Assembly: GCA_900542185.1 (NCBI GenBank)
Contig: UQMZ01000001.1
Span: 65,035 to 129,034 of the forward strand
Length of the DNA: 64,000 bases
DNA from: an uncultured Bacteroidales bacterium
GTDB lineage: Bacteria; Bacteroidota; Bacteroidia; Bacteroidales; Muribaculaceae
Direction of reading: 5' to 3'
In this document: piece after piece, positions 1 to 55,207 of the stretch
Layout: each line of letters opens with the position of its first letter
How positions within the stretch are numbered: the stretch's first letter is position 1
Notes under the pieces: generated by a model
Told to the model about the DNA's origin: nothing
Databases searched by the model: none
Seen by the model: only the letters and a program-made list of their open reading frames with translations
Translations under genes and position numbers: made by a program

Positions 1-3000
1 CGGAACTCGTCGGCGTCCGCTTCGAAGCGGGTCAGTTCCAGACCGGTAGTATCGAACAGTGAGAACGATTCGCCGTTGTATCCCTTTATAAGCAGACGGC
101 TGCCTACGAGTCGTATGGAGCGGGCTGTGCCTACGCCGTCAATTCCCGATGGATCGGGTTCGTCAGGCATGTTTTTCTCTACGGTAACAGGTATGGACAG
201 CGTCACGGTGCGCCCGTTGGATATGGCATTTACCAATGCGGTGCCGTGCCCATAACCTGAAGGATTGATGGTCAGTCTTCCATTGTCCAGCGTCAGATTG
301 AGTGTGATGTCGTCGCCATCAGCTTCGGTTTCGGCCTCGGGCAATGCGAACACGATTGCATGGTTGTTGTTGTCCGGGTCGTTGACCAGCTTGTACAGGT
401 TCAGCGTCGTGGAAGCGTTGGGCATCGTGCTAAGCTTGTCCACACCCATAATCACACCGTTGAAGTCCTCGTTAAGACGGGCATCCTCCTTGTCGGGGAA
501 GATGGGCATCGACTGGAACCAGTAGTAAGGCTCGAGGTCAATGGTCTTCTTGATCTGGCCTGTAGTAGCGTCCACGAAATGCGTCCAGTTGTAACGGTAG
601 TGGCCGGAAGCCTTGTATTCGGTAGTCATGACGATGAGTTCGCCGGAGCGGTCGTCGTAACGCGATGTTCCGTAAGTACCCTGGGCTACGTTCTTGTTAT
701 TACCGGGCAGTACAGGGTCATTGAGGTCGAAAACAGGCTTGAGGCCCGAGGGATCCGTACCAATCTCCCAGCAGTAGAATCGGCCTGCGCCGCCATTGGA
801 TACGCTGCTGCCGGGCGAGAACCACAACACGTTCTTGGTGTTGGTGCCGAAGAACTGAGTGGTGCGCCATGCGCCCCAGCCGCAGGATACTGTACCGATC
901 GATTCGGGCATTACAACGCTGAGTTCAGTGTTTTCCTCTAATGTTTCGGGATCGATGCAGATGAAGCGCGACGACTTCTTGTCGTCGGTGAGCGAAGCTA
1001 CCCATACATTGCCGTCGGCGCTCAGGGTCACGCTCTGCACGTTGGTGTCCTCGATGGTCTTCACCACCTTGTCGGTGTTGACATCAATGATGAATACGCC
1101 TGTGGCCTGCTTGATTGCGAACACATGTGTGCCGGCATTGACCATGTCGCCGATCTGTCCGGCATAGAGGTTACCGCTGGCTCCTTCGCCGGTATCGCCG
1201 ATCTTGCCCGTAACCTTAATCTGGTTCAGGTCGATGATGTAGATACCCTGGTGTGTCCCCATATATACCTTGTCGGGAGTGGCACCGGCGATGGCACGGC
1301 CGTCGCCGCTGCGGCCCTCGGATTCAAGCTTGATGTCGTCGATGCTGCCCAGACGCTTGAAGGTCTTGGCGTCGGCCACTACCAGGCGTCCGCCGCCGGG
1401 CAGCGGGTCGCCGCCGTCGCTGGCCTGCTTGGAGGCTATCAGCAGCTTGTCGTTCCAGATCACGCCGTACTGCGACGTGCAGCCGAATGACATGCCCGGA
1501 TTCTCACGCTCGTAAACCTGATACATGATGTCCTTGTCCTTGGTGATGAAGTTCATGCCTCCGTTGGTATGGCCATACCATTCCTCGTTCAGGATTATTG
1601 TACCGTCCTGATATGTGTCGGGAGCTACGGGAGTACGGTCCTGATCCACTACCTTCACAGTATACTCGCGAGTGTAGTTCGATCCATCCTTTGCCTTGAC
1701 GATGAGCTTGCATTCGCCTGCGTGATGGCCGCTCAGCTCGCCGAACTGTGTGCGGTTGTTGTCCTCGTCCCAGTAGTTCACCTTATAAATCGATGCTATG
1801 AGGTTCGCCTTGTCGGAGAAGTCGCCGGCGCCCTCGAGGGTGACGTCGAAGTCCCTGATGTCGGCATCGGCGGGAGTGAATTTGCCGATAAGACCGATCA
1901 GATGCTTGGGATTCAGGGTGATTACATCTCCCTCCACGCCTTCGATGTCAATCTTCTGGATGGGTTTGCGCCATGCCACGTTAACATTGAAGTCAGCTTT
2001 GACCTCAGGATTGAAAGCGTATGTGGCCGAGATTACGGCCGAGCCTTCTTTGCGGGCGCATGTCACTTTTCCGGTGTTGGCTACGGTGGCGATGCTGCGA
2101 TCGCTTGTGGAGTACGTGAACTGTGTATAGGTGGCGTTGGCCGGTTCAATCACGAATTCAGGCTGGAACACTTCAGTGAAGTGAGCGTCATAACCGTTCT
2201 CGCCATAAGCATACGATATGGAGGTCACGGGAATCTCAGGAGCCGTCACAGCCACCTTGACGGGATCAGTGTAGTCAAGATTTCCAGTCGAGATATTTGC
2301 GCGGACGCTGAGATAAGCGTCACCCACATTGTTGCCGAATGTCAGCTTTGCCTGAGTATTGCCCTTGGCCGGATCGGTCAGGGTAGCGCGTGATATGATC
2401 TTAGTGTCGGTCTTGCCGGTGGCGTCGAGATAACGCCAGCTGAGCGAACGCAGCGAATTGCCTGCGCCCACATTAAGAAGCACGGGCACGTAAGCCTCGT
2501 CGGCGATGGCGATCTTCATGCCTTCGGGAATCCAGGCGCCCACGGTCTCGGCATTCTCTATATATGTGAAATATTGGAAGGGCTCGGGCAGTGCGGCCGA
2601 TGTGTAGTCAAGCAGCAGCAGGTCGTTGGCCTGTACCTTGTCGCATGCCGACAGCGTGTAACTGTAGTCCTCGCCACGGAATGCCTTCCATGTGGAGCCG
2701 TCGTCGTTCTGAGCCCAGTGGTCATAGGTCTGCTCGGGTGTAACGGTTTCGGCTGATTCAGCGGTGAAGACACCGTTCTGGCCCGTCAGAGCCGAGGAGC
2801 CGGTAAGGCCGATTACGTTATCGCCGTTCAGGTCGAAGCCGTATCCGATGAACTTGCCGGAATTCTTAAGCGCGTAGAAGCGGCGGTCGTTCCGTACAAG
2901 AGTCTCCATGACGGACTCCACGGAAGCTGGGGCCGTGAACCTGACTCCGGCAGTGATGTTCTCCACACCCTTGCCGTCGTTGAAGCGCATCACAACCTGC

Positions 3001-6000
3001 ACATGATCCGGTCCGTCGCCATACCATACCTTCACTTCCTCGGGTATGCTTGCCGTGCCGCGGCTTATGGGGAATTCGGGCGAAGTCAGTGATTTGCCGT
3101 CGGCGGTAACGGCTGTTATGGTAGCGTTGTATGCCACGCCCTTCTTCAGGTCGAGACCTTCGGCCACGAGTTTGCCGTTACTTAACGTCAGGGTGGCTTC
3201 GGCGGCGTTGCCGGAGGCATCCTTATAATTGAGTGTCATGGCCGAAGTCTGGGCCACGGCCATGGAGTTGGCCTTTACGAACTGTGCGGGCAGACCCTCG
3301 GTGTCGCATTCGAATGAGAATGGAATGCGCAGCGTGGTGATTCCATGGTTCACGGTCGACTCGATGTCGTTGCCAGCCGTCAGCTTCGTGACGGAGGGAG
3401 ACTCGATCTTGTTCTTCTTCCAATAGTTTGCAGCCTCGTATGCGCTCTTGCTGCCGGTTGGAACCCACAGGGTCGAGGTGCCGCTATATCCGCTGGGGCT
3501 GAAAGTAGTGCTCTGGCACGAGATCGGCTTGGGATTGCAGATATAGAAGGTGATTCCGGTACAGTTCTGTGCAAGATAAGAGCCCATATAAGTCACGGAA
3601 GCGGGGATTGTCAGCTTGGTGACGCCGGTGGCCTTGATGAAATAACTGCCCAGATAAGTCACAGTCTCGGGAATTTCGATTTCAGTGATAGACTTATTGT
3701 CGGCGAAGGCATAGTTGCCGATACGTTTCAGACCGTCGTTAAGCTTGAAGCCGGAGATTGACGTGCACTTGTCGAAGCAATAGTTGCCCACTTCGGTCAG
3801 AGTTGCGGGGAATGTCACGATGTTACCTTGTTCGTTAGCCTTGGCAGGGACCCCCGCGGGCTGTGAACCTGAATACTTGATTTCGGCAAGTTTGGTGCAA
3901 CCATTGAAAGCATATTGACCCAAAACCGTCACGTCGGGAGCCATCGTCACGCTTTTCAGCGAGGTGCAGCGGTCGAACAAGGAGTTCGGTATTTCCTTGA
4001 TGGCGTCGGGTATTGTCATTGTCTCAAGCGAAGTACAGCTCTTGAATACTTCCGAGCCAAGCTTTGAAACGCCTGAGGGGATATCCATCCTAAGCTTTGA
4101 GCAGCCTGAGAATGCCGCAGCCTTGATTTCCGTGACGGTCTCGGGAATTGAGACGTTTTCCAGCGAAGAACAGCCGGAGAAGAAGCTGTTCGGAATGGCG
4201 GTGAGGCCGGCGGGCAGTTTCACTGTCTTTAAGGCGGAGTTGCTCTGGAATACATTGATTCCCAATGTCTCCACGCCGTCGGGAATGGATATTTCGGTTA
4301 GCTTGCTACCATAGAAGCCGTAGTCGCTGATGGTCTTCAGCGTGGAGGGAAGAGTAACCGAAGCGAGGGCCGAGCAAGACATGAACGAGCGGACGCCGAT
4401 CTTCTCGAACCCTTCGGGAAGCGAGGCGGTACTGATTTTGGTGTAAGCCAGCGCATAGTCGCCTAATTCCTTGAGACTGGCAGGGAACTTGATTTCGGTC
4501 ATGCCCGTACAATCGAAACAAACGGCTTTGCCTATGCCGGCGATTGCATCGGGCAGAGAAAGCTTGGTGATTTTCGATGCCTCGAAGAATGCGCTGTCGT
4601 TCACGGCAGTAATCTTGAATTCGATGTTCTGGTAATTCACCCGGTCGGGCACATTGATTTCGCCGGTATATGCGGCGTTGGCGGCCTTGAGTTTCGTACG
4701 GTCGGAGGGACCGTCTATAGGCATGTATGTGACGCAGGCGGTCTTGGCGCCGTCGGCCATCGAGGTAACGCGGTAAGAAATGCCGTTGGCCACGAAACGG
4801 TCGTTGATCTCGACGCTAAGCACGAATTCGGCGTAATTGGCGAAGTTGCTCCAGCCTGTGGCGGCCTTATAGGCATTGGAAAATCCTACAGGCACGCTCA
4901 GCGTGGCGGTCTGATAAGCGGTGGCGCTGAAAGTGTCGTCGGAGATGGAAATAGGAGACGTAGCCACGCACTTAACGCTGACCAGGGCATCGCATCCGGC
5001 GAATGCCTTGGAATCAACGGCCTTAAGAGCCTTGGGAAGTTCCACGTTCTTGAGCTGTCGGCAATCGGCGAAGGCACCTTCGCCCACAGTCTCTACATGA
5101 GAGGGGATCGTCACGGTCTCGATGCCGGTGCCGGCGAACACTGAAGTCCCGAGGTTCTTGACGGGCGCGGGGTAGAACACGTCCTTGAAAGCAGCGCAAC
5201 CCTTGAAGGCGGCGTCTCCCAGCTTGGTGATGTGGTCGAAACGGTCGGTGCCGGTCGAAACGGCTGGATTGGTGCCGTCCGTGACAGCGAGGGTGACGAG
5301 GGTGGAGCCTTCGAAGGCGCTCTTGCCGATGCTGACCACGCTCTTAGGCAGAGTGACCGACGTCACCTGGCTTCCCTTGAAGGCCTCGTTGTCTATGGCG
5401 GTCACCTTGTAGGTGATGCCGTTGTCGGTGAAGTTGGCCGGTACGGTCACGACGCCGTTATATTGTGTGAGAGTCTCGCCCTCGATGTCGCGGGGCGCCA
5501 CTACCGACACAGTCTTGTTCTGATAGTTCTTCAGCTCATAATAAATGCCGTTGACTTTGAATTCGGTCTTGGCTCCATCGGGAATGGGAGAGGGAGCGGC
5601 TTTGAATTTCTTCCAGTCGCTTGGCATCATGTTCAGCGAGAAGTTCCAGCCATCCCAGCTGCCGTTCTGCAGCACGCGGCCCGAAGCGCCCCAGCCAGAA
5701 TAGCCGAACGAATCGGCCTGTCCTTCCTTGACCCAATAGCTCCAGTAACTGATGTACCAGCCCGCGCCCCAGAAGTCGTCGTTGTCGCGGGCCTTCCAGT
5801 TGTCGTAGTCATAGTCCGAGCTTCCACCTTGGCCGGGCACATAGCCGCGCGGATGAATGAACAGACCGTTTTCAGACTCGTATACCTGATTGCCGTGGCC
5901 GGTGTCGATCAGTGCGATGTCTCCGTCGGCGTCACGGTCCCACCCGAAACCATTAATGGTGTAACCGCCGTTGGGGTCCGTAGGTGAGCTGACATTGGTG

Positions 6001-6398
6001 TACTGAATCAGGCCGTACAGTTGCGGATTGGCAGCCACGACCGCGCGAATCATGTCGGCGCCTGTGGCCTGGCCGTTCCAGCGATAGCCGAACACCAGTG
6101 CCGATGTCTCTTTCGAGTCATTCCATTGGATCACCAGTGCGGCCTGGTTCGAGCCTTCGCCGGCCCAGCTCTCGATCATGTCGAAAGTGAAATCGCCTTC
6201 AGGCACGGGGAGATCGCCGGGATCCTCCGGATAGTCGCTTTGTGCGGCAGCTTTCTGCATGTCAGTAGGTAATGTGGAGCGGTAATCCACACCCTGCACC
6301 GTCTTGGGCACTTTGTCGTACCGTAGCTTAGGCTCCAGAATGGTGGCGCCCAGCGTCAGCACGCATAGTGCGACAAGCATTAGACACAGTTTTTTCAT
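1..6398 (-). CDS. Giant secreted multidomain surface protein, partial (>2130 aa; C-terminus lies beyond the window start). Signal peptide, unassigned N-terminal domain shared with the two upstream genes, BspA-type leucine-rich repeats, Ig-like (Big_2-like) segment, YVTN/YncE-like beta-propeller-like region, probable start of a T9SS C-terminal domain at the window edge
   Basis: My own reverse-strand translation runs from ATG 6398 (MKKLCLMLVALCVLTLGA...) to position 1 with no stop; frame spot-checked at 1-120, 1201-1263, 1441-1500 and 6241-6398. The ORF track does not report ORFs that run off the window, which explains the absence of a listed ORF. Only short, V-rich, low-complexity antisense ORFs appear on the + strand. 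~25-aa repeats of the form IP.SV..IG..AF..C..L are typical BspA-type LRRs. The terminal ...LLIKGYNGESFSLFDTTGLEL resembles the start of a T9SS C-terminal domain. The ATG overlaps the stop of the upstream gene (ATGA at 6395-6398). Confidence 0.7.
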   Translation of the reverse strand, partial: MKKLCLMLVALCVLTLGATILEPKLRYDKVPKTVQGVDYRSTLPTDMQKAAAQSDYPEDPGDLPVPEGDFTFDMIESWAGEGSNQAALVIQWNDSKETSALVFGYRWNGQATGADMIRAVVAANPQLYGLIQYTNVSSPTDPNGGYTINGFGWDRDADGDIALIDTGHGNQVYESENGLFIHPRGYVPGQGGSSDYDYDNWKARDNDDFWGAGWYISYWSYWVKEGQADSFGYSGWGASGRVLQNGSWDGWNFSLNMMPSDWKKFKAAPSPIPDGAKTEFKVNGIYYELKNYQNKTVSVVAPRDIEGETLTQYNGVVTVPANFTDNGITYKVTAIDNEAFKGSQVTSVTLPKSVVSIGKSAFEGSTLVTLAVTDGTNPAVSTGTDRFDHITKLGDAAFKGCAAFKDVFYPAPVKNLGTSVFAGTGIETVTIPSHVETVGEGAFADCRQLKNVELPKALKAVDSKAFAGCDALVSVKCVATSPISISDDTFSATAYQTATLSVPVGFSNAYKAATGWSNFANYAEFVLSVEINDRFVANGISYRVTSMADGAKTACVTYMPIDGPSDRTKLKAANAAYTGEINVPDRVNYQNIEFKITAVNDSAFFEASKITKLSLPDAIAGIGKAVCFDCTGMTEIKFPASLKELGDYALAYTKISTASLPEGFEKIGVRSFMSCSALASVTLPSTLKTISDYGFYGSKLTEISIPDGVETLGINVFQSNSALKTVKLPAGLTAIPNSFFSGCSSLENVSIPETVTEIKAAAFSGCSKLRMDIPSGVSKLGSEVFKSCTSLETMTIPDAIKEIPNSLFDRCTSLKSVTMAPDVTVLGQYAFNGCTKLAEIKYSGSQPAGVPAKANEQGNIVTFPATLTEVGNYCFDKCTSISGFKLNDGLKRIGNYAFADNKSITEIEIPETVTYLGSYFIKATGVTKLTIPASVTYMGSYLAQNCTGITFYICNPKPISCQSTTFSPSGYSGTSTLWVPTGSKSAYEAANYWKKNKIESPSVTKLTAGNDIESTVNHGITTLRIPFSFECDTEGLPAQFVKANSMAVAQTSAMTLNYKDASGNAAEATLTLSNGKLVAEGLDLKKGVAYNATITAVTADGKSLTSPEFPISRGTASIPEEVKVWYGDGPDHVQVVMRFNDGKGVENITAGVRFTAPASVESVMETLVRNDRRFYALKNSGKFIGYGFDLNGDNVIGLTGSSALTGQNGVFTAESAETVTPEQTYDHWAQNDDGSTWKAFRGEDYSYTLSACDKVQANDLLLLDYTSAALPEPFQYFTYIENAETVGAWIPEGMKIAIADEAYVPVLLNVGAGNSLRSLSWRYLDATGKTDTKIISRATLTDPAKGNTQAKLTFGNNVGDAYLSVRANISTGNLDYTDPVKVAVTAPEIPVTSISYAYGENGYDAHFTEVFQPEFVIEPANATYTQFTYSTSDRSIATVANTGKVTCARKEGSAVISATYAFNPEVKADFNVNVAWRKPIQKIDIEGVEGDVITLNPKHLIGLIGKFTPADADIRDFDVTLEGAGDFSDKANLIASIYKVNYWDEDNNRTQFGELSGHHAGECKLIVKAKDGSNYTREYTVKVVDQDRTPVAPDTYQDGTIILNEEWYGHTNGGMNFITKDKDIMYQVYERENPGMSFGCTSQYGVIWNDKLLIASKQASDGGDPLPGGGRLVVADAKTFKRLGSIDDIKLESEGRSGDGRAIAGATPDKVYMGTHQGIYIIDLNQIKVTGKIGDTGEGASGNLYAGQIGDMVNAGTHVFAIKQATGVFIIDVNTDKVVKTIEDTNVQSVTLSADGNVWVASLTDDKKSSRFICIDPETLEENTELSVVMPESIGTVSCGWGAWRTTQFFGTNTKNVLWFSPGSSVSNGGAGRFYCWEIGTDPSGLKPVFDLNDPVLPGNNKNVAQGTYGTSRYDDRSGELIVMTTEYKASGHYRYNWTHFVDATTGQIKKTIDLEPYYWFQSMPIFPDKEDARLNEDFNGVIMGVDKLSTMPNASTTLNLYKLVNDPDNNNHAIVFALPEAETEADGDDITLNLTLDNGRLTINPSGYGHGTALVNAISNGRTVTLSIPVTVEKNMPDEPDPSGIDGVGTARSIRLVGSRLLIKGYNGESFSLFDTTGLELTRFEADADEF

Positions 6399-7969
6399 TT
6401 TACGATGTACTTTAAAGTTATTATTTTGTTTTTGGATTTTCCTTGGATTACGAACATTCCGTTGCCCAAGCCGGGATTAAGGGTCATAGAGTCGCTTTCG
6501 CATGTGAACGACGACAGGGTACGGCCGGAAATGTCGTAGATTGTGAAGAGATATCCCGAGCAGTCTCGGAGGAGGATGGTTCCGTCGGAGGTGACGTTGA
6601 GAACCGGAGCAGAAGTCACGATGTCGCCTACTGCGCCCGGATTATCGGGATTGTCAGGATTGTCAGGATTGTCGGGATCATCGGGATTGTCGGGATCGTC
6701 CGGAATGTTCGCCTTCTCGATGTATGTCAGGTTGTCGGTGCTGTAATCGGGTTGGATGCCTGCGGGGGTGCATGTCAGAATGATTATTGCACGGGGGTTT
6801 ATAAACGAGCCTCCCGACACTTTGTAAATCTCGGGTTCGTTGCGATAGTCGGCATAGATGTCCCAGGAACCGGTCACCATGTTGTGGTCATTCTCATTGA
6901 TGGCCCCGTCGACGTTTGCGTCATAGCTTATGGACACGATCCTGCCGTTGTCGTAAGTCACATGGAAAGCCTTGTCGCCGTTCAGCACGTTTGTGATCAT
7001 GGTGTTGACGGTGTCGTCCCAGCCGCCGCTCCAGCGATAGCCGGCTACGAGATTGTCGGGCTGTTTGCCGTCGTTGAATTTTATTACAAGCGCGGCATAT
7101 TTCTCGCCTTCGCCGGCCCAATACTTGATCTTGTCGAAATCCACAGAGAGCACTTCGGGTTCAGGCTCGGTCATAGTCTCGCCGTAATCGGCCATGACAT
7201 AGTCGAGATTTGCGCTGGGTTCTGGCGCCTCGCCCATCTGGGTCATATCGGGAACGTAGTTCCAGAGATTGACGCTGCCGGGTGTCAGCTGAGCCGACGA
7301 CATGCCGAGGCCTGAATAAGAGGCGTCCGACAGTTCTTGGCCTTCTGAGCCGAGCCAGAAGCTCCAGTAACCGCTATACCATCCGGCTTGCCAATGTAGA
7401 TCCTGGTCGTCCTTATGTTCGGCGTTCAGCTGCCAAAAATCGTAGTCGTATGCAGGATATCCGTATCGGCGTGCGTTGAGGGGATGCTCGATGATGCCGG
7501 TAGTCTTCGAGGCATTGATGGCGGCCTGTATCAGCTGCGGAGTATCGTAGCCGGGAGCCGATGTCTGGCCCATCATCGTATTGGGCTCGAAGTATCCGAA
7601 CGATACTTGGCCGTCGATGGCCGCGCTCTGGAAATCATATTCCAGATAATCGAGGAACTTGCGTCCGGTGCTGAGACCCACTCCGTCAAGAGTGCTTCCC
7701 ATCGATCCGGTGTACTGCACCAAGGCCGACAGCGAGCGGCTTGCGGCTGCCACGCCGCGCAGCATGTCCTCACCCGAGGCCGTGCCGTCCCAGCGATAGC
7801 CCCACACGTAGGCCACATCGTCCTTGCCGTCGTTGAACTGAATCACCAACGCAGCCTGATTAAGGCCTGAGCCTGCCCAATGACGGATCTTGCCGAAGTC
7901 CACGGTCTCCGACCGGGTCGTCAGCGCAGCCGTCAGTAAAAGCATCGTTGATAGTAATGTTTTCTTCAT
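6395..7969 (-). CDS. Secreted T9SS cargo protein (524 aa) with two copies of the unassigned shared domain, a (D-P-D/N)n linker and a T9SS C-terminal sorting domain
   Basis: Signal peptide MKKTLLSTMLLLTAALTT. Domain copy 1 has WAGSGLNQAALVIQFNDG...GYRWDG...YDYDFW...HWQAGWYSGYWSFW. Domain copy 2 has WAGEGEKYAALVIKFNDG...GYRWSG. Linker PDDPDNPDDPDNPDNPDNPDNP. C-terminus ...MFVIQGKSKNKIITLKYIVK is typical of a T9SS C-terminal domain. Confidence 0.75.
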   Translation of the reverse strand: MKKTLLSTMLLLTAALTTRSETVDFGKIRHWAGSGLNQAALVIQFNDGKDDVAYVWGYRWDGTASGEDMLRGVAAASRSLSALVQYTGSMGSTLDGVGLSTGRKFLDYLEYDFQSAAIDGQVSFGYFEPNTMMGQTSAPGYDTPQLIQAAINASKTTGIIEHPLNARRYGYPAYDYDFWQLNAEHKDDQDLHWQAGWYSGYWSFWLGSEGQELSDASYSGLGMSSAQLTPGSVNLWNYVPDMTQMGEAPEPSANLDYVMADYGETMTEPEPEVLSVDFDKIKYWAGEGEKYAALVIKFNDGKQPDNLVAGYRWSGGWDDTVNTMITNVLNGDKAFHVTYDNGRIVSISYDANVDGAINENDHNMVTGSWDIYADYRNEPEIYKVSGGSFINPRAIIILTCTPAGIQPDYSTDNLTYIEKANIPDDPDNPDDPDNPDNPDNPDNPGAVGDIVTSAPVLNVTSDGTILLRDCSGYLFTIYDISGRTLSSFTCESDSMTLNPGLGNGMFVIQGKSKNKIITLKYIVK

Positions 7970-7979
7970 ATTATGTGTA

Positions 7980-8960
7980 TTAAGGAGTAGTTGATGAAGG
8001 ATTTGAAATATATACCGTACGGCATCTGCCGTCGCGTCCCCGTTCTATGTATATGCCGGGGGCTGAGAGAGTCGCTACGGGGCGCCCGTCAAGGCTGAAA
8101 TATCGCGGAGCGTCTTCGGGAAGTTCGATCGTGGGGATCGAACTTGAATTTTCGCCCACATATTCCAATGGACGCAGGGGACGCGAGGCGCCGGAATATC
8201 CGTCCACAGGGTCGCGCCACGCGGGATAATTATCGTGGCGATTGAAGTTCAGCACCAGGAAGTCGCCGTCGGCAAGTGTAAGACGGTCGTACGCCATGCC
8301 GGTGTATTTCATCAGTGCCACGTCGTCGGTGCCGGTCCATATCACCCAGTTGCCGGTGTTCCATCCGGCGTTCCAGTGCCTGTAGGGTGCTATGTCGCGC
8401 ACCACCCAGTAGTCGTAGTCATAACTTGGCATTCCGAAGGAGAGGGCGTTGATGGGATGCTCTACCACATGATTGCTCTTCTGCGCCGCGTTGATAGCCG
8501 AGCGGCACAGATTCACGGTGTCATCGCCGGGTCCCGTGAGATTACCCTGCGCGTCGGTGGCGAAATAGTTGAACGGTATGGTGAGGTCCTCCCGCGCGGA
8601 GTCGAAGTCGAACCAGAGGTTTCGAAGCACGTCGCATCCGATGCCGAACCCGATGCCCCCCAGACAGAAGCGTTCGGGCGTAGACGAGGTGCGTTGCTCC
8701 AGCAAGCATAGTGTCGAGTCCGATGCGCAGAGGCTTCTCAACGCATCGCGACATGTGGTGTCGCCGCTCCATCTGAAGCCGAACACATAGATGCAGTCGG
8801 CCACGCCGTCGTTGAACTGAATGCCGATGGCGGCGCGGTTCGGTCCTTGTCCCGACCAGCGGGCAATGCGGTCCCATTCCAACCGCGAGGCGACGGCCGG
8901 AAGAGTCATGGCCATGAAGGCCAGCAATGCCATTGCTATATGTCGGAAACTATGGTTCAT
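7980..8960 (-). CDS. Secreted protein (326 aa) carrying one copy of the unassigned shared domain; possible T9SS C-terminal domain
   Basis: Signal peptide MALLAFMAMTLPAVAS. Domain motifs RWSGQGPNRAAIGIQFNDG...FGFRWSG...EHPINALSFGMPSYDYDYW...HWNAGWNTGNWVIW match the paralogous domains in 6395-7969 and in the giant gene. C-terminus ...GIYIERGRDGRCRTVYI is CTD-like. Confidence 0.65.
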   Translation of the reverse strand: MNHSFRHIAMALLAFMAMTLPAVASRLEWDRIARWSGQGPNRAAIGIQFNDGVADCIYVFGFRWSGDTTCRDALRSLCASDSTLCLLEQRTSSTPERFCLGGIGFGIGCDVLRNLWFDFDSAREDLTIPFNYFATDAQGNLTGPGDDTVNLCRSAINAAQKSNHVVEHPINALSFGMPSYDYDYWVVRDIAPYRHWNAGWNTGNWVIWTGTDDVALMKYTGMAYDRLTLADGDFLVLNFNRHDNYPAWRDPVDGYSGASRPLRPLEYVGENSSSIPTIELPEDAPRYFSLDGRPVATLSAPGIYIERGRDGRCRTVYISNPSSTTP

Positions 8961-8961
8961 G

Positions 8962-10206
8962 TCAACGTCTGTCGGTTAATGGGGCATCGGGGATTATGGT
9001 GGCGGGGTCGGGAATGTTGAGGTCCTGGCCGCGGCATATTTCGGTGGAGGTCTCGCCGAGCCATCCGCAATATTGGTTGAGTCCTGTGTACACGCGCACG
9101 AAATCCACGCCCGGCAGATGCACAGGGTTGCCGTCGGCGTCCACGGCCCGGTCGATGTCAAACGAGTTGAGGTCGGCGAAATCGTTGGGGTGATTGTCGA
9201 CATATCCCCAGTCGTAGCTGTAAAGGATATAGTAAGTGCCCATGCCGCTGGTGTCTACGGCATTAGGGGCAAGACGGGTGCCGGTGAATGTCAGTTCATC
9301 CGTATCGACCCATTTCGGATAGTATTCCTGAACGTGGAAGGAATTTTTAGGCATATAGCCGGTGTTGCCCTCCGAGTCAAACCAGGGAATATAATAGAGG
9401 TCGGTAAGATAGGGATAATCATTATCGGGAACAGGCTGCCGGTCACGTTCCGGGCGGCGGTACGTCAGCGTGTAATTATGGATTGTCTCCGGCTTATGGT
9501 ATTCGCTGCCGGCCAACTCGTACCACGGATCGTCGGGGATGCCGTTCATGTTCACGTCATAGCTCACCATGACGATGCCCGGCTCGGCCGAACCTCCCTT
9601 CTCGTCGGGGTTCAACAGCTCGTAGAAGGCGTTGCCCCAGATGCGGAAATCCTTCTTGCCCGGTTCGTTTACCACTGTATGGTCGAAGCCGAAAGTGACG
9701 TAGCCGCCATATCCGCCTAATGAAATCATCACGTCGTTCTTGCCTGATATCGATTCCTCGCATTTCTGCAGGATGTCGGCGTATGTGTCGCCCTCCTCAT
9801 ACTGGGGCATCTCGTTGACGAACTGGCCCGGAGCCGGACAATACTCGTACACCTTCGTAATCCAGGGACTGTATTCCACCTCCTCGTGCATCACCGTGAC
9901 GGTAAACTCATGGTGATAGGGAGTGTCATCGTCAATGATGTCGAAAGTCATGCGATACAGTCCCTCCTCGGCCTCCATGAAGATATATTCGGAATCAGTA
10001 GACACTTCTGTAGTGACGCCGTCAGGAGAGGTGAGGGTCCACTTATACTCGCGGCCGGTGTATGCCGATTCAAGTTTCAGCTTCTTCATCCGGTACACAT
10101 AGTAATCGTCATCTATGCCCAAGTTCACCATCTGGACATCGTGCGTGCAGGACGTGAAGAACAACGCCGCGAATATGAAATATAGAATCTTATTCATGGT
10201 CCTCAC
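8962..10206 (-). CDS. Surface lipoprotein (414 aa) of unknown function in a corrinoid-uptake operon; possible BtuH-like/DUF4465-like accessory protein
   Basis: Lipoprotein signal with Cys (…ALFFTSC). Sits immediately downstream of the BtuG-like gene and overlaps it by 17 nt. No recognisable catalytic motifs; the family assignment is a guess from context only. Confidence 0.6.
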   Translation of the reverse strand: MRTMNKILYFIFAALFFTSCTHDVQMVNLGIDDDYYVYRMKKLKLESAYTGREYKWTLTSPDGVTTEVSTDSEYIFMEAEEGLYRMTFDIIDDDTPYHHEFTVTVMHEEVEYSPWITKVYEYCPAPGQFVNEMPQYEEGDTYADILQKCEESISGKNDVMISLGGYGGYVTFGFDHTVVNEPGKKDFRIWGNAFYELLNPDEKGGSAEPGIVMVSYDVNMNGIPDDPWYELAGSEYHKPETIHNYTLTYRRPERDRQPVPDNDYPYLTDLYYIPWFDSEGNTGYMPKNSFHVQEYYPKWVDTDELTFTGTRLAPNAVDTSGMGTYYILYSYDWGYVDNHPNDFADLNSFDIDRAVDADGNPVHLPGVDFVRVYTGLNQYCGWLGETSTEICRGQDLNIPDPATIIPDAPLTDRR

Positions 10207-11359
10207 GTTTTAGGAATGTGATGTGGGCGGGGATGTCGCCGGTGCGTACGCTCCATTTCCTGCGGCCCAGGAGGTCGAAGCAGTAGAGTGTGCCCGACGA
10301 CACATAGTTCTTGGCGTCCGTCACCAGGATATCGCCTGTCTCGGGATGCACGGCGATGCCGTAAGGAATCGTAATCTCCTTCTCCGTGCCGTCGGTTATG
10401 AAGTTGTGGGAAACGAGACGCTTGGTACGTACGTCGACTATGCCATAGGTGATGGTATTGGACTGGGTGTAGTTGTTCCACTCGGTGGAATAGAAATAGA
10501 GGGAGTCTCCGCGAATGGCCATGTTCGACACTCCGAAGGGGAGGGTGTCGGTAACTATCATCTGGTTGTAGCCCCGGCGTTTGTCAAGGACATACATGCG
10601 CGATGGCCGGCTCTGATAGTCGCCGCGCGACGTGACCCACAGCTTGTTGTACCGGTCCTTCTTGAGACGGTGCAGGTTGATGCCTACCGGAATCTGCTGC
10701 ACCTGCTTGAAGTCCACCATCTGAATCACCGACACCGTATTGTCGTAGTTCGGGACTCGGTATCCGCCGGAATTGGCCACATACATATAATCGTCGACAA
10801 TTTCCATTTCCTCCGGCTGATAGCCTACCGATACCTTCCTGGTGACTTTCAGCGATGTCGTATCGACCTCGTACACGGCTCCCTTCGGGGCGTCGGGGTC
10901 AATCAGCACCGGCCCTACATACGAGCTGACGTATGCCTTGTCACGGTAGAATCGCACGTAACGGCAGTTCGGGATGTCCACCTGGCCTAAGCGCGTGCCG
11001 GTGCGGCTGTCAAGCACCTCCACCTTGTGCGAGCAGTTCACCACCACATATAGCTTCGAACCGTATATGCCTATGTCATTGCCTACGTCGCCAAGCTCCT
11101 TGATTACGTTAGGATTGCGCTCGGCGTAGAAGTTGCGGGCGTACAGACCGGTGAAATAGTCGAAATAGTCGAGCGTGCATTTATTGGACCCCATGTTGCC
11201 CTCGTTCACTAAGTAAAAGCCGCGGATGGATGTGTCGGAGTCCGGCACATCGTTGATGATGTCGTATTCCGTCGGCACCACCAGTTCGTCGTGGCGGCAT
11301 CCGGCAAGGAACAACGTCATTGATAAGGTTATGGTATATGTTATGGATTTCATTCTCAT
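10190..11359 (-). CDS. YncE/YVTN-like beta-propeller lipoprotein, BtuG-like candidate corrinoid-binding surface protein (389 aa)
   Basis: Lipoprotein signal (...LFLAGC). Repeated blade-like motifs (YVANSGG, VSVIQMVD, LWVTS, ILVTD). ATGA start/stop overlap with the TonB receptor gene at 11356-11359. This is the canonical position of btuG downstream of btuB in Bacteroidota. Confidence 0.65.
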   Translation of the reverse strand: MRMKSITYTITLSMTLFLAGCRHDELVVPTEYDIINDVPDSDTSIRGFYLVNEGNMGSNKCTLDYFDYFTGLYARNFYAERNPNVIKELGDVGNDIGIYGSKLYVVVNCSHKVEVLDSRTGTRLGQVDIPNCRYVRFYRDKAYVSSYVGPVLIDPDAPKGAVYEVDTTSLKVTRKVSVGYQPEEMEIVDDYMYVANSGGYRVPNYDNTVSVIQMVDFKQVQQIPVGINLHRLKKDRYNKLWVTSRGDYQSRPSRMYVLDKRRGYNQMIVTDTLPFGVSNMAIRGDSLYFYSTEWNNYTQSNTITYGIVDVRTKRLVSHNFITDGTEKEITIPYGIAVHPETGDILVTDAKNYVSSGTLYCFDLLGRRKWSVRTGDIPAHITFLKREDHE

Positions 11360-13362
11360 ATTTCTGCCACGATAGTAAATCTGAAGTTGCGCTTGGGCAT
11401 CGGATAGTTGATGATCACGTCATAGTCCTGGCTGAGCAGGTTGTTTATCTCGGCCATGGCGCGCAGGGACACTTTCTTGATTTTCAAATCTTTGCTTATG
11501 GATACGTCGGAGGTGTACCACGGCTGCGTGTAGTTGTACCTGATGTTTTCCTGCTGGTTGTAGCGTTCGCCCACATAAATCCAGGAATAGTTCAGGTTCC
11601 ATCCGTGCCACGAGGCGTTGAACACGCATGCGCCCGAGTTGCGCGGTATGTAGGGAATCTGGTCACGGTAATAGTTGTCGGATGGGTCGGTGACGTCGAT
11701 GGCGCGCTGGAACGTGTATTGGGCGCGCAGAGTCAGCATCAGGTCGCTTACCGGATTGACCGTCACAAGCGCGGTGACGTCCACGCCCTTGATGCGGACA
11801 CGGCCGAGGTTGAGCATGGTCCAGCGGAACTGCTGCCCTTTGGGGTATGCCACGATCTTGTCACGCACCGTATTGTAATAGACATCGGCGCCGATGCGGA
11901 TGGTGTTGACCACGCCACGGCGCACACGGTCGTACAGTATGCCGGCGTTGTACTGCGTCACATGCTCGGGATTTAGCTTGGAGTTGCCCATGTCGGCATA
12001 GTAAAGGTCGTTGAACGTAGGCATCCGGAACGACTTCTTGTAGAAGGCCCTGATGGAAAAATCGGGCGAGCGGAGCGGATAGCCGGAAACGAATACGGCG
12101 GGGGTGAACACGTGCTTGTCCTTGGGTGATTCCTGGCCTTTGAGCCGATCGTGGATGAATGTGCCTAAGGCGCTGGCCTGGAGTTTGAAGCGTGGCAGGT
12201 TGATGGCCGTGGCGCCGCTGACGAAATGCGAGAACCGGTCCGGCTTGGCGAATCCGTACATGTCGGCTTTCAGGTCGTTCCACATAAAGTCATAGCTCAG
12301 CGACACGTGCCACCAGTCAAAAATCGAGTATTGGTTAGCGGTAGAGAAATAAATCTCCTTCTGGCGATACAGGTTGTCAATCTTCACCTGCTTGTCGTCG
12401 TTGTTGACATAATGGGTTCTGTAAGAGGCATATTTTAGGTTGTTAAGTGTTATGAATCGTCCGAAATCGCCTCGGTAACGTCCCTGAGCGAAAGAGTTTG
12501 TGTCCCAGATGCGTTCGCCTCGCCGCCACACGTTGTTGACGATTGCCCCGGGGACGCCACGTTCCGAATTGTAGTTATAGACCTTGAAATTCCAGTCACC
12601 CTTCTTGATGGTGCCGTTCAGGTTGAGTTCAAGTCGGGTGGCGTTGATGTCGCCGTTCTGGCGTACAGCCGTTGTGTCGTAGGCAAGCTCTCCGGCCGGG
12701 TTGACGCGGCGGTATCTGAATTTGTATTTGCCGCTGGAATTCAGCCATTCGGCGCTGAAGGAGGCGTTGACGTTGCGGCCGAGGCGTATCTCGGCGAGAA
12801 CAGAGGGATTTATCAGGTCAAATGAACCGAAGCGTATAGCGGCACGGGCGTGATAGTTCTCGCCCTCCTCGAAGTGAGGGGTCCGGGTATGGATGTAGAT
12901 GGTGCCGGCGGAACCGAAATCCTTGGCAGGCTGCAGTATCTGGCTTTTCTGGCCGTTGTAGAGTGACAGCGACTCGATGTTGTCGAGCGAGAACTGCCCG
13001 AGGTCTATCTGACCGTTCTGGGCGTTGCCGAGCTCCACGCCGTCGTACACCACGCCGGTGTGGTTGGTGCCCATGCTGCGGATGTTTACGGTCTTGATTC
13101 CGCCCACGCCTCCGTAGTCTTTCACCTGTACGCCGGCGAAGTAACGCAGGGCGTCGGCTATGCTGTTGCTGTTGAGGCGCTGTAGCTCATCGCCCTGCAG
13201 TGTCTGTACGGGAATCACGTCCTCCGATTTGTTCCGGGCCGTAACAACAAGTTCCTGCAGGTTGCGGCCTGTGGTGTCGGGGCGTTGCGGGCGCTCTACA
13301 GCGTATGCGGGCACCGTTGCGGTACTCGTCAGGAAAAGTATTATAGACGTTTTTAAAGTCAT
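11356..13362 (-). CDS. btuB: TonB-dependent outer-membrane receptor, BtuB-like (cobalamin/corrinoid transporter), 668 aa
   Basis: Signal peptide, plug-domain motifs (LQELVVTAR, DALRYFAGVQV, GIKTVNIRSMG) and a C-terminal aromatic barrel end. It is preceded by a cobalamin riboswitch, so the substrate call rests on the riboswitch. Confidence 0.8.
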   Translation of the reverse strand: MTLKTSIILFLTSTATVPAYAVERPQRPDTTGRNLQELVVTARNKSEDVIPVQTLQGDELQRLNSNSIADALRYFAGVQVKDYGGVGGIKTVNIRSMGTNHTGVVYDGVELGNAQNGQIDLGQFSLDNIESLSLYNGQKSQILQPAKDFGSAGTIYIHTRTPHFEEGENYHARAAIRFGSFDLINPSVLAEIRLGRNVNASFSAEWLNSSGKYKFRYRRVNPAGELAYDTTAVRQNGDINATRLELNLNGTIKKGDWNFKVYNYNSERGVPGAIVNNVWRRGERIWDTNSFAQGRYRGDFGRFITLNNLKYASYRTHYVNNDDKQVKIDNLYRQKEIYFSTANQYSIFDWWHVSLSYDFMWNDLKADMYGFAKPDRFSHFVSGATAINLPRFKLQASALGTFIHDRLKGQESPKDKHVFTPAVFVSGYPLRSPDFSIRAFYKKSFRMPTFNDLYYADMGNSKLNPEHVTQYNAGILYDRVRRGVVNTIRIGADVYYNTVRDKIVAYPKGQQFRWTMLNLGRVRIKGVDVTALVTVNPVSDLMLTLRAQYTFQRAIDVTDPSDNYYRDQIPYIPRNSGACVFNASWHGWNLNYSWIYVGERYNQQENIRYNYTQPWYTSDVSISKDLKIKKVSLRAMAEINNLLSQDYDVIINYPMPKRNFRFTIVAEI

Positions 13363-13449
13363 GCCTGTCTGTCAGTTCCGTTATGACGGCAGCGGGGCAT
13401 GGCATGAACCGGACCTCGATCAGCATCGAGTTCCGAGATGTGCGGAGCC

Positions 13450-13489
13450 AAAAAATCCCGTCGGCCGTACGTATGTACGCGCAGACGGG
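13450..13489 (-). terminator. Intrinsic terminator/attenuator hairpin forming the riboswitch expression platform
   Basis: Minus-strand RNA CCCGUCUGCGCGUACAUACGUACGGCCGACGGG followed by UUUUUU (the A-run 13450-13455 on the + strand). Lies between the aptamer and the btuB ATG. Confidence 0.6.
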
Positions 13490-13579
13490 ATGTAACAAGC
13501 ATTTTATCAGGAAATCCGTAGCCCATAGTCCCGCAGGCGCGTGTATATATCGCAATGGCAGGTCTTCTGACTTATTCCT

Positions 13580-13725
13580 GCGTGTCGCGCCTTCTCGGAG
13601 ACCGGCTCCAATGGCTTCTGCGACCGCGTATGAATCCTGTCTGAAATTCAGGATTCGTGGAACTTACAGCAGCGGGTACTGTTCCGGACTCTCACCGGAT
13701 TCCCTATTTTGAAGTTGTTTAAGCA
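13580..13725 (-). promoter_or_regulatory. Cobalamin (AdoCbl) riboswitch aptamer
   Basis: Minus-strand RNA reads AAUAGGGAAUCCGGUGAGAGUCCGGAACAGUACCCGCUGCUGUAAG ... GCCAUUGGAGCCGGUCUCCGAGAAGGCG. This matches the conserved core (GGGAA..CCGGUGA.A.UCCGG.ACAG.ACCCGC.GCUGUAA) and the B12-box/GCCACUG-like element of RF00174. A TonB receptor gene lies downstream. Confidence 0.75.
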
Positions 13726-13792
13726 ACTCCATTCCATTCCCTGACGAAACGTCGCGGCTCACTCTTGAGCCAGGGAATACCATTTGCGACTG

Positions 13793-13800
13793 CAAAGATA
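13793..13800 (-). promoter_or_regulatory. Candidate Bacteroidota -7 promoter element (TATCTTTG) for the riboswitch/btuB transcript
   Basis: On the minus strand TATCTTTG matches TAnnTTTG, about 65 nt upstream of the aptamer 5' end. The -33 TTTG spacing is not ideal. Confidence 0.3.
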
Positions 13801-13865: not shown

Positions 13866-14987
13866 CTATATCTTATAGTGTAACAAATCACGGCAACCAG
13901 CCAGGACTTCGTCAATAATATCATGGCAACGCTTTTCAGACAACTGGATTTTGGTTCCCACAGCAACGAAATCTGATAATTTCGGATGCCCCGTGCCATT
14001 GACGGAGGTGGCATGCTCGCCATTATATCCTTCGGTACATAATGTAAGGTCGTATGCCGGCGCAAGTCGCCATATCCAATTGCCGGTATCGCCATCCGGA
14101 ATCACGTAAAAACTGAAATTCTTACAGTGGTCGTCTTTATTGTCGGAGAAGTAATTGAACAGCATGCGTCGGTACAACTGCTCTACATCCACTTGACTCT
14201 GTGTTAAGTAGCCTGTGAGGGCAAGTAGGTTGGAATAGTCCATGAAGGGCTGACTGAGCGAAAGCCCAAGCAGGGCTCCTGCAGTGGCTGTATGTAACCT
14301 ATTGTTGCCGGAATCTATGTCAAACCTGCGTGATGCGAAATACCTGTCGTTGATTAGCTTAAAGTCGGGAACGATAATACCGCATTTGCGGGCCGTTTCA
14401 TTATACTGATGTTCCAGTTTCCCAATATCCTTGGGATCGTATATATGTCTGAATTTTACAATCCAATGTCCCTCGGAGTCGGAAAACACAGCTTTGGGAC
14501 GCGCGCCGCCGCTGTTGCCGCTGTTATAGAGCAACAAGCCGGCATCGCTGTCCTGCTGTTCTTTAAGAACTTCAATGGCCATCTGCTGAAGCTGGTCGAA
14601 ATCTGTTATTGATTCCCCAGGTTCAAGAGTAAAGGCCGGATCGTAAGTGAGTGCGCCCATTCCGTTGTCTCCTACAATAGCGAGTCTGTCGAGCGAAGAT
14701 AGATCCGAATCGTTGATTCCCTGACGCATCAGAATCTTATGCAGTAGGTATCGGCCATATCCATCGGGTAAACTGTCTTCGAAAATCCCGAAATTGCCGT
14801 TAAACGGCTGTAGATTTGCTATGAAGACTTCCGGTTGTAACGGCAGCTCAAGAGGGGATATGCTGAATCCCTCGGCAAGCCATGAACTGTCGTATTCAAA
14901 TACATTGAGACGATTGTCGGGAGTGAGCGACAATGTGCCGACAGGCCGGCCACGAAACCGGACTTGAAGTTTTTCGGTATGATTCAT
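13866..14987 (-). CDS. hipA: Type II toxin HipA-family serine/threonine kinase (373 aa, short HipA variant)
   Basis: HipA catalytic-loop motif KDDHCKNFSF (DxHxKNFS). 4-nt overlap with the upstream HTH gene (14984-14987). Confidence 0.8.
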   Translation of the reverse strand: MNHTEKLQVRFRGRPVGTLSLTPDNRLNVFEYDSSWLAEGFSISPLELPLQPEVFIANLQPFNGNFGIFEDSLPDGYGRYLLHKILMRQGINDSDLSSLDRLAIVGDNGMGALTYDPAFTLEPGESITDFDQLQQMAIEVLKEQQDSDAGLLLYNSGNSGGARPKAVFSDSEGHWIVKFRHIYDPKDIGKLEHQYNETARKCGIIVPDFKLINDRYFASRRFDIDSGNNRLHTATAGALLGLSLSQPFMDYSNLLALTGYLTQSQVDVEQLYRRMLFNYFSDNKDDHCKNFSFYVIPDGDTGNWIWRLAPAYDLTLCTEGYNGEHATSVNGTGHPKLSDFVAVGTKIQLSEKRCHDIIDEVLAGCRDLLHYKI

Positions 14988-15337
14988 TTTTTTATCGGAT
15001 AAGCGCGTTTATCATCTTTTTTGCGTCGGATCAGCTCAAGTTCCTGCATGGTGTTGAATTTTGCCACACCGAACAAATTCCTGATGTCGGATATATAGCC
15101 TAATGCCATGGCAAGCTTTACGAGCGATTCAAAGCCAATAAGCCCTGTACGTTCAAAACGGGCCACTGTAGACAGGGGTACTCCTGCCGACTTCGCGATA
15201 TGTTGCCGTGTGATATTCTTTTCTACACGTCGTCTGCGGAAATTCTCCGCCACTTCCTTTGCTATTTCCTCAGGATTGTCCAGCGTATAGTTGTCCAATA
15301 ATGACAATATATCATTACTAATGCCGTTTTGTACCAT
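14984..15337 (-). CDS. hipB: XRE-family HTH antitoxin, HipB-like (117 aa)
   Basis: Helix-turn-helix motif ITRQHIAKSAGVPLSTVARFERTG. Overlaps hipA in the canonical hipBA arrangement. Confidence 0.7.
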   Translation of the reverse strand: MVQNGISNDILSLLDNYTLDNPEEIAKEVAENFRRRRVEKNITRQHIAKSAGVPLSTVARFERTGLIGFESLVKLAMALGYISDIRNLFGVAKFNTMQELELIRRKKDDKRAYPIKK

Positions 15338-16203: not shown

Positions 16204-16813
16204 AATTATATGATACGGTGAACAGGGCAGGTCGGTAAGACCGTGGCAGGGTCTGTCCGGATATTATGTTCAGGCACCGAATTCCCTGCGATGCATTAAC
16301 GTTATGACATGAAAAGCGCGGGAATCTTATCTGTTGCTCGTCCCGCTGTGTAAGGCTCTGGCATCGCCCATTCCCATAAGACGAGCAACGCAGAAGCCCA
16401 CGCATATATGAATATGTATACGTCCGTATACACGCATTCATACCATAGGCATCTATCGTTGCTAATCTTGACGGGAACGTAAAACTGCCAGATTCTACAC
16501 AGCCAAGAAATAGCGCAAATAAACGCTTTTATGAAAAATTCTATTGGAGAAGACCATTGGCCTTCAATATAGAAAAGTATTTCCCAACCCTCAGCCCCTT
16601 GGGCTTCCGAGTCAAGTATAGCAAAATTACAAAAATATTTTTAAGGTACAAAATAAGGTTATGTCTAATTCATAAATAATCCATAAAAACTAATTTGCAC
16701 CAACAGATCAGTTTTTGTAATATCTTAGATTTTGGTTAAAATTGACTATTGCGATCTGAGAGGATGATGTGTAATTTTGCAGCATCAAACATCAATAATA
16801 AGAAAAAGGTATT

Positions 16814-54973: not shown

Positions 54974-54992
54974 CAACGCAGAACGTTGCATT

Positions 54993-55065: not shown

Positions 55066-55073
55066 CAAAAAAT

Positions 55074-55145
<72 letters not shown>

Positions 55146-55207
55146 CCAAGTTATTATCAACCTCCTCCTCGATTCAAGAGGAAAAATCAAAATCAAAATA
55201 TAGCAAA

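Follow-up and report, generated by a model that had tools for sequence, protein, structure and literature searches.

At one end of a 64,000-nucleotide stretch of DNA from an uncultured Bacteroidales bacterium of the family Muribaculaceae (assembly GCA_900542185.1, contig UQMZ01000001.1, positions 65,035 to 129,034; the whole stretch is hereafter the window), a cobalamin riboswitch is followed on the same, minus strand by six consecutive open reading frames (ORFs), and the question raised by this locus is what the last three of them have to do with the corrinoid uptake to which the first three can be assigned. Competition for B12 and related corrinoids shapes gut communities, and the known multi-protein relay for their capture comes, to our knowledge, almost entirely from Bacteroides thetaiotaomicron; the Muribaculaceae, widely reported to be abundant in the mouse gut, are little studied. 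A previous examination of the window, made without database searches (the sequence-only reading), had described btuB, btuG and btuH as a classical corrinoid-uptake set and had offered two interpretations of the other genes, orf4, orf5 and a gene for a giant protein, namely a new accessory arm of corrinoid scavenging or B12-regulated surface remodelling. With a probability of about 70%, the locus is in our view one riboswitch-controlled corrinoid-scavenging operon with extra capture proteins. Its parts, in the 5' to 3' order of the minus strand, are as follows (nt, nucleotides; aa, amino acids; domain X is described below).

13793..13800, minus strand: candidate Bacteroidetes-type -7 promoter box, TATCTTTG, a TAnnTTTG match about 40 nt upstream of the riboswitch
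13540..13753, minus strand: cobalamin riboswitch aptamer RF00174 (Infernal 85.2 bits, E 1.5e-19, model positions 1-189)
13449..13491, minus strand: terminator-like expression platform, a G+C-rich hairpin (13455-13491) followed by U6 (13449-13454), from the centroid fold of 13430-13545
11356..13362, minus strand: btuB, TonB-dependent corrinoid transporter, BtuB1-like, 668 aa (PDB 8blw_A, E 6.6e-129; Pfam Plug)
10190..11359, minus strand: btuG, surface lipoprotein with a seven-bladed propeller, 389 aa (lipobox LAGC; Pfam DUF5074)
8962..10206, minus strand: btuH, surface lipoprotein with a BtuH-type B12-binding C-terminal domain, 414 aa from the GTG (lipobox FTSC; likely start ATG 10197)
7980..8960, minus strand: orf4, putatively secreted protein of 326 aa with one divergent domain X (aa 20-249, 8214-8903) and a signal peptidase I (SPI)-type signal peptide without lipobox
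6395..7969, minus strand: orf5, putatively secreted protein of 524 aa with two copies of X, a tail resembling the C-terminal domain (CTD) of type IX secretion system (T9SS) cargo, and an SPI-type signal peptide without lipobox
1..6398, minus strand: the giant gene, more than 2132 aa (2132 codons in the window; ORF open at the window start)

The aptamer covers the full RF00174 model and scores above its gathering threshold of 31.5 bits, which, together with the six ORFs, bears out the claim that a riboswitch heads six minus-strand genes. The identity of the first three is equally firm. The btuB product aligns with BtuB1 of B. thetaiotaomicron (8blw_A) over residues 34-664 and falls below the cut-offs of the E. 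coli-type equivalog in NCBIfam (99.7 bits against 599.7); it is a transporter of the Bacteroides type; the btuG product, a propeller preceded by a lipoprotein signal, matches the BtuG structures 8ptd, 8ptf and 8blw_B in the PDB at E 5e-39; and the btuH product matches residues 393-661 of 8blw_B at E 2.6e-73 and BtuH2 (7biz_A) at E 8e-51. These matches confirm the corrinoid-uptake set.

TAnnTTTG is the Bacteroidetes -7 consensus, as in Bacteroides promoters. The box at 13793-13800, which we infer to act as the promoter, is its sole occurrence on the two strands of 1-13800, out of 31 in the whole 64-kb window; positions 1-13792 contain zero on both strands, against about three per strand expected from the window-wide density. 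In the leader, the hairpin and its U6 tract lie 50 nt after the aptamer and 87 nt before the btuB ATG, in a predicted fold whose z-score for the whole segment is only -1.6. As modelled, the expression platform of the riboswitch is of the terminator type, and polar control over the whole downstream transcript would follow from this. A simple terminator scan found 10 terminator-like sites, against 13.3 expected in shuffled sequences, and the two that are on the strand of the operon fall within orf5 and the giant gene, away from the junctions; with counts at chance level, and having missed the leader hairpin because its loop exceeds 8 nt, it was replaced by the leader fold. A sigma-70 promoter scan, also at chance level and built on a consensus unsuited to Bacteroidetes, was replaced by the TAnnTTTG search.

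All five junctions in the window overlap or leave a gap of at most 10 nt, and reading them base by base confirmed the coordinates previously given for each. The btuB and btuG genes share an ATGA (11359-11356), as do orf5 and the giant gene (6398-6395). The btuG stop codon TAA (10192-10190) overlaps by 17 nt a btuH gene begun at the GTG at 10206; an alternative start, the ATG at 10197, reduces the overlap to 8 nt and is the likelier one because the resulting lipoprotein signal peptide, MNKILYFIFAALFFTSC, is cleaner. A single base (8961) separates the btuH stop TGA (8964-8962) from the orf4 ATG at 8960, and 10 nt (7970-7979) separate the orf4 stop TAA (7982-7980) from the orf5 ATG at 7969. Taken together, tight or overlapping junctions, no internal TAnnTTTG, no excess of terminators and a terminator-type platform uphold the operon, and co-transcription of the six genes, as far as sequence can indicate it, is well supported.

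The last three genes had been described as encoding secreted or T9SS proteins not known from B12 uptake. Self-comparison of their products revealed a domain of about 230 aa, here called domain X, that had gone unnoticed and is common to orf4 (one copy), orf5 (two) and the giant (two); by blastp, orf4 matches orf5 at E 1e-42 and the giant at E 1.5e-17. On this sequence evidence, the three genes are paralogous through the common domain. The features of orf5 and of the giant are as follows (Ig, immunoglobulin; LRR, leucine-rich repeat).

7217-7897, minus strand: full domain X of orf5, aa 25-251
6782-7138, minus strand: short X module of orf5, aa 278-396
6550-6700: Pro/Asp-rich repeat linker of orf5, PDDPDNPDDPDNPDNPDNPDNP, aa ~425-470, separating the second X module from the C-terminal tail
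6398-6550, minus strand: T9SS-CTD-like tail of orf5
5586..6185, minus strand: N-terminal domain X of the giant, aa 72-271 (blastp to orf5 domain X, 37% identity, E 6e-27)
3399..5531, minus strand: BspA-type LRR block of the giant, ~aa 290-1000 (PF13306, 415.9 bits in six stretches; matches to the PDB LRR proteins 4fs7 and 4gt6)
2766..3038, minus strand: second, short X module of the giant, aa 1121-1211 (blastp to orf5 aa 252-372, E 1.3e-11)
2022..2150, minus strand: Big_2 Ig-like domain in the Ig-rich spacer of the giant, aa 1417-1459 (PF02368, E 1e-5)
495..1607, minus strand: BtuK1-like seven-bladed propeller of the giant with an NEEWYGH motif, aa 1598-1968 (PF16819, E 2e-96)
3..146, minus strand: tentative start of a T9SS-CTD-like tail of the giant, cut by the window end, placed from the homologous tail in the related locus L007

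About 24 C-terminal residues of the giant should lie beyond the window, judging from a complete relative, P0169 (2154 aa), which is 87.6% identical over the propeller region. The protein begins with an SPI-type signal peptide without lipobox, and its Pfam matches are six LRR_5 stretches (2.2e-126), which make the LRR block one of the BspA type, DUF5074 (2e-96) and Big_2. The claim that none of the last three genes encodes a known kind of B12-uptake component fails for this propeller. Its sole sequence match in the PDB is 9s6c (phmmer E 4e-8, with the B12-contact loop aligned), that is, BtuK1, a B12-binding protein of B. thetaiotaomicron (PMC13616437; PMC12751083). Among the six residues by which BtuK1 contacts B12, E23, W25, H28, T60, K76 and E77 (PMC13616437), the first five recur unchanged in the giant (NEEWYGH...TSQ...SKQ), where Q takes the place of E77; across 21 homologues, the N, E, W and H of the NExWxGH motif do not vary. 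An AlphaFold2 (AF2) model of the propeller (predicted local distance difference test score, pLDDT, 83.6) gave 9s6c as the top Foldseek match (E 3.6e-21; template modelling score, TM, 0.83), the next 18 matches are all BtuG or BtuK2 structures of B. thetaiotaomicron, and the best 21 in all come from BtuK or BtuG of that species, so that BtuK1 is the nearest relative by sequence and by structure. The N-terminal PKD domain and the lipoprotein anchor of BtuK are absent from the giant, which has no lipobox and a Big_2/Ig region in front of the propeller.

The genomic surroundings of related genes link the distal proteins to B12. A 15-sequence, domain-only alignment, searched with one genome per species, found 312 loci with a relative; the counts below refer to the best 80 of these, all from Bacteroidales and mostly Muribaculaceae, in which ORFs were annotated by similarity to the window domains. 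The closest are in human-gut Bacteroidales/Muribaculaceae metagenome-assembled genomes (MAGs), at up to 85% identity. An Rfam scan of seven of the 80 loci found a same-strand cobalamin riboswitch in all seven, and a profile made from these seven riboswitches was run over all loci. A riboswitch is present in 51 of the 52 loci where BtuB is complete and preceded by at least 350 nt of sequence, and the first X gene is preceded on its own strand by BtuG or BtuH in 65 of the 66 loci with at least 2.8 kb upstream. The locus that lacks them, L085, has a riboswitch directly before a lone X gene. L040, the only one of the 52 with no detectable upstream riboswitch, comes from the same MAG, HGM05250, as L085. 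The consensus order is riboswitch, BtuB, BtuG, BtuH, at least one X gene, a protein of the composition X/(LRR)/X/Ig/propeller/tail, and a separate gene for a BtuK-like protein of about 480 aa. Comparison with L007, a near relative with 81% identity in domain X, suggests that the operon of the window probably runs on past position 1 into a gene of this BtuK-like kind. The gap over 330 junctions at related loci has a median of -4 nt when the most upstream ATG is taken, or of 22 nt when the ATG nearest the start of homology is taken.

X is fused to a propeller in 60 of the 80 loci and to LRRs in 27, and the LRR block is accordingly, on present sequences, an optional insert in the family, X and the propeller being the conserved parts. 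This weakens the earlier view of the giant as a BspA-like adhesin for surface remodelling, and we rejected a primarily adhesive giant because its LRR block is optional. Four relatives, P0096, P0108, P0101 and P0209 (775-1607 aa), carry 3-10 X modules or a duplicated Ig-plus-propeller block, which suggests a modular expansion of the predicted binding units. In L039, a second match resembling a cobalamin riboswitch (16382-16508) stands right after the last BtuK-like gene and suggests that another B12-controlled unit follows the operon.

Domain X is also found outside the order. A word-indexed search returned 79 relatives, chiefly proteins of about 320 aa from Muribaculaceae, together with a small number from Tannerellaceae, Deltaproteobacteria and planctomycetes that carry PEP-CTERM-type tails; an exhaustive profile search returned 1,245 representatives of clusters at 50% identity at E <=1e-3, and 783 at E <=1e-10, many with several X domains. 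Eight loci with distant homologues were scanned with Rfam, and in all seven that could be evaluated a same-strand cobalamin riboswitch heads the unit that contains X. Genes behind the riboswitch are listed here (TBDT, TonB-dependent transporter).

L086, Tannerellaceae: X, then a DUF5074/Big_2 protein
L090, Bacteroidota: X, further genes, then DUF5074 with a T9SS tail
L092, Bacteroidota: BtuF-like protein, TBDT, DUF5074, Big_2, X, DUF5074 with a T9SS tail
L089 and L093, Planctomycetota: a prepilin-like protein, then X
L087, Deltaproteobacteria: a PEP-CTERM protein, then X
L005, Desulfosarcina: a PEP-CTERM protein, then an X paralogue; the X protein used as query lies upstream of the riboswitch, and the linkage is through the paralogue

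Cobalamin riboswitches are rare, with at most some tens per genome, and for this reason a repeated linkage of X to them across phyla by chance seems very unlikely. The synteny check is therefore strongly positive: homologues of the downstream genes stand almost always behind a cobalamin riboswitch together with btuB, btuG and btuH, and are riboswitch-linked even in other phyla, which favours the accessory arm among the two interpretations first proposed. As to the composition of the planctomycete units (L089:8609-10729 and L093:6727-8714), they consist of a prepilin-like protein of about 300 aa (N_methyl/SBP_bac_10, DUF1559) and a PEP-CTERM domain-X protein, with no transporter gene in the unit. 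In L005 (11503-11919) and L087 (8457-8906), cyclic di-GMP-I and cobalamin riboswitches occur in tandem before the PEP-CTERM/VPDSG-CTERM and domain-X genes, with the order of the aptamers swapped between the two.

Sequence searches assigned domain X to no described family. The orf4 protein has no match in Pfam or NCBIfam; domain X itself has none in either, the 63 family members searched with it giving only sorting tails and a spurious S16 match; and single-sequence and family-profile searches of the PDB found no sequence match. Against the Pfam models of transcobalamin-like SLBB domains, for which we take DUF4430 as the model of the clade, nothing appeared even at E up to 5. A jelly-roll of the BtuJ kind was considered and rejected, since PF14717 (BtuJ/DUF4465) matches none of the six window proteins or the 63 family members and the fold differs. 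The conserved core of the domain is rich in Trp, Tyr and Gly.

A structural model was more informative. The AF2 model of orf5 aa 20-262, built with a 63-sequence alignment, has a pLDDT of 95.8 and a predicted TM score (pTM) of 0.92, and its structure matches, with their scores, were:

2pmv_A, human intrinsic factor: 10.4
4kkj_A, haptocorrin: 10.0
5no0_A, isolated beta-domain of human transcobalamin: 9.5
2bb6_A, bovine transcobalamin: 9.4
3u7z_B, RUMGNA_00854 protein: 8.8

Foldseek placed the same proteins at the top (transcobalamin beta-domain and 3u7z), with TM 0.73-0.74 normalised on targets of about 100 residues; since the alignments span about 210 query columns, the beta-domain appears to lie within X, interrupted by an insert. 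Domain X is accordingly predicted to be a beta-grasp module, nearest to the beta-domains of transcobalamin and intrinsic factor, split by a helical insert, most of which is absent from the shorter PEP-CTERM forms of the family. Among domains already described, the model comes nearest to the SLBB beta-grasp domains of the transcobalamin-like clade, for which a role in scavenging B12 in Firmicutes and archaea was predicted in 2007 (PMC1796856). Domain X shares with that clade the genomic association with B12 scavenging, and with it and the beta-domains of transcobalamin, intrinsic factor and haptocorrin a predicted extracellular location, but no detectable sequence similarity. It also differs in the insert of about 80-100 residues that interrupts the Bacteroidales forms, in having no alpha/alpha-toroid partner domain, in its taxa (Bacteroidota, Planctomycetota and Deltaproteobacteria) and in its sorting signals (T9SS CTD, PEP-CTERM and VPDSG-CTERM).

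The description of the three distal proteins as T9SS cargo finds matches in the window only below threshold. All three have signal peptides; the T9SS-like tail of orf5 scores 20.2 bits on TIGR04183, below its cut-off of 23 bits, that of the close homologue of the giant in L007 scores 16.8 bits, also below the cut-off, and orf4 matches no T9SS tail model. The C-terminus of the relative P0169 reads ...GVYVLRGANMSYKFMVR, PF18962 matches 8 of the 63 family members at E up to 5 (best 5.5e-6), and one source annotates a relative as a T9SS sorting-domain protein. From the SPI signal peptides without lipobox and the T9SS-like tails, sub-threshold as they are and supported by the PF18962 matches in relatives, orf5 and the giant are probably secreted and attached to the surface by the type IX system.

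These elements can be combined into a working mechanism. When corrinoid is plentiful, the aptamer would favour the terminator hairpin at 13455-13491 with its U-tract, and transcription would end before btuB; when it is scarce, read-through would give a single long mRNA for btuB, btuG, btuH, orf4, orf5 and the giant. BtuB and the lipoproteins BtuG and BtuH would form the known outer-membrane uptake core, and orf4, orf5 and the giant, as Sec-exported non-lipoproteins, two of them with T9SS-like tails, an outer capture layer. The BtuK1-type propeller of the giant would be held on a long stalk of Ig and LRR regions, which could serve as stalk or as interaction surfaces. The X domains and the propeller would bind corrinoids away from the membrane and hand them over to BtuG-BtuB, in a manner analogous to the BtuJ/BtuK/BtuH relay of B. 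thetaiotaomicron (PMC13616437), with different proteins and a different export route. That domain X itself binds corrinoids is a proposition towards which we incline, with some reserve. The fuller proposal receives slightly less credence, tilting just in its favour: that X is an undescribed family of extracellular corrinoid-binding domains with a transcobalamin-like fold, under riboswitch control in at least three phyla and with varied sorting (T9SS, PEP-CTERM), which in Muribaculaceae is joined with BtuK-type propellers on giant stalked proteins into a secreted, non-lipoprotein arm that replaces BtuJ.

Several considerations weigh against a corrinoid-scavenging operon with extra capture proteins. 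That domain X and the propeller bind corrinoids is predicted from sequence and models; no sequence similarity links X to DUF4430/SLBB or to any PDB chain, and the Foldseek E-values behind its resemblance to the transcobalamin beta-domain are about 1, not significant. The T9SS tails of orf5 and of the L007 giant lie below curated cut-offs, and the 80 loci, as the closest relatives among 312, are not independent samples. SLBB beta-grasp domains bind various ligands (PMC1796856), and BtuK2 and BtuL are proteins of B12 operons that do not bind B12 (PMC12751083; PMC13616437). The weak structural match, the missing sequence link and these last two precedents would all be expected if the genes were co-transcribed and domain X had a surface role other than corrinoid binding, for instance by docking to BtuB-BtuG, lipopolysaccharide, host or microbial proteins that carry B12, or cells that produce it, the propeller alone handling the vitamin; the BspA-type LRRs of the giant, a protein-interaction fold, point the same way. 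We regard this alternative as unlikely, though it deserves to be taken seriously. Docking to BtuB or BtuG fails to explain the riboswitch linkage, because the X genes of Planctomycetota and Deltaproteobacteria stand behind cobalamin riboswitches in operons in which no BtuB or BtuG was seen, and a core rich in Trp, Tyr and Gly would recall the aromatic-rich pockets that other corrinoid binders also appear to have.

The remaining alternatives concern regulation and adhesion. The sequence-only reading held that there is no room for internal promoters, which is too strong a statement, given that operon 1 of B. thetaiotaomicron has a strong internal promoter within coding sequence (PMC12751083) and the same may be so here. 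The distal genes could then be transcribed independently of the riboswitch, and their clustering would reflect shared function or history, a supposition to which the 27 of 330 junctions at related loci that could exceed 150 nt, and the uninformative nature of a sigma-70-type scan in Bacteroidetes, lend some room. It is nevertheless improbable: in the window every junction is tight, TAnnTTTG is missing despite an expectation of about three per strand, terminator-like sites are no commoner than in shuffled sequences and the pair on the operon strand lies off the junctions, and X genes elsewhere that do not follow btuB have their own riboswitch (L085, L086 and L090), which suggests that selection keeps X under B12 control. 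More improbable still is a role of the distal proteins in B12-regulated adhesion or surface remodelling with no part in uptake. Such a role would agree with the large BspA-type LRR block (PF13306, 416 bits), with a weak similarity to the adhesin HupY/LrrG and with the surface-sorting tails, but the LRR block occurs in far fewer loci than the fusion of X to the propeller, orf4 and orf5 have no LRRs, and the propeller is BtuK1-like with its B12 contacts kept.

Riboswitch-controlled BtuB-BtuG-BtuH systems with extra surface binders are already known, and the locus is best compared with Btu operon 1 of B. thetaiotaomicron (PMC13616437, PMC12751083, PMC10404256). Both operons are headed by a cobalamin riboswitch and encode a BtuB1-type transporter, a BtuG propeller, a BtuH domain, BtuK-type propellers and several extra surface proteins. 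BtuG and BtuH are fused as BtuGH in B. thetaiotaomicron and are separate genes in the window; BtuJ (DUF4465) is absent from the window, domain X proteins standing in its place; and the accessory proteins of the window have SPI signal peptides and T9SS-like tails, unlike the lipoproteins of B. thetaiotaomicron. The BtuK-type propeller of the window is embedded, again unlike operon 1, in a protein of about 2150 aa with LRRs, Ig spacers and two X modules. BtuK1 (BT_1486, PDB 9S6C), a B12-binding lipoprotein of about 450 aa with a PKD domain and a propeller, belongs to the same seven-bladed family and is the best structural match; it is 21% identical to the giant propeller, which is a domain inside a giant secreted protein. 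BtuL (BT_1955) of operon 2 of B. thetaiotaomicron is a repetitive, receptor-L-domain-like lipoprotein that does not bind B12 (PMC13616437); compared by its published description, it resembles the giant as a large, repetitive, solenoid-type surface protein of a riboswitch-controlled B12 operon, and by this analogy the LRR block could be a counterpart of BtuL, although the repeats of the giant are of the BspA-type LRR_5 kind and fused to predicted binding domains. The BspA-family surface proteins of Bacteroidota have the same LRR_5 repeats and are likewise large and surface-bound or secreted, whereas the giant belongs to a B12 operon and has a conserved X-X-Ig-propeller plan into which LRRs are inserted in some family members only. 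The literature searched contained no paper describing the domain X family, its transcobalamin-like fold and cross-phylum riboswitch linkage, or secreted, non-lipoprotein giant fusions with a BtuK-type propeller, and all of these appear to be new.

The picture of B12 uptake is not overturned by these findings, which are of interest for the B12 ecology of the gut. The locus indicates that Muribaculaceae keep the BtuB-BtuG-BtuH core and extend it by a different outer layer, with a new family of domains predicted to have a transcobalamin-like fold, BtuK-type propellers embedded in giants and probably T9SS export instead of lipoprotein anchoring. If domain X does bind corrinoids, it would constitute a new, testable class of bacterial B12 binders that reaches beyond Bacteroidota, and the group of bacterial proteins related to the B12 carriers of animals would gain a branch. 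Hundreds of 'hypothetical proteins' encoded behind cobalamin riboswitches can also be annotated with these results as a set of markers.

Some neighbouring features were recorded along the way. Matches to FopS, a Bacteroidetes small-RNA family, adjoin B12 loci at L008:4422-4488, L008:20251-20322 and L090:7998-8064. Directly upstream of the operon promoter in the window, at 13866-15337 on the minus strand, lie unrelated neighbours, a HipA-like kinase gene and a small helix-turn-helix gene that form a toxin-antitoxin pair of the HipBA type, and farther away, at 54891-56524 on the plus strand, the window contains a cluster of four tRNA genes.

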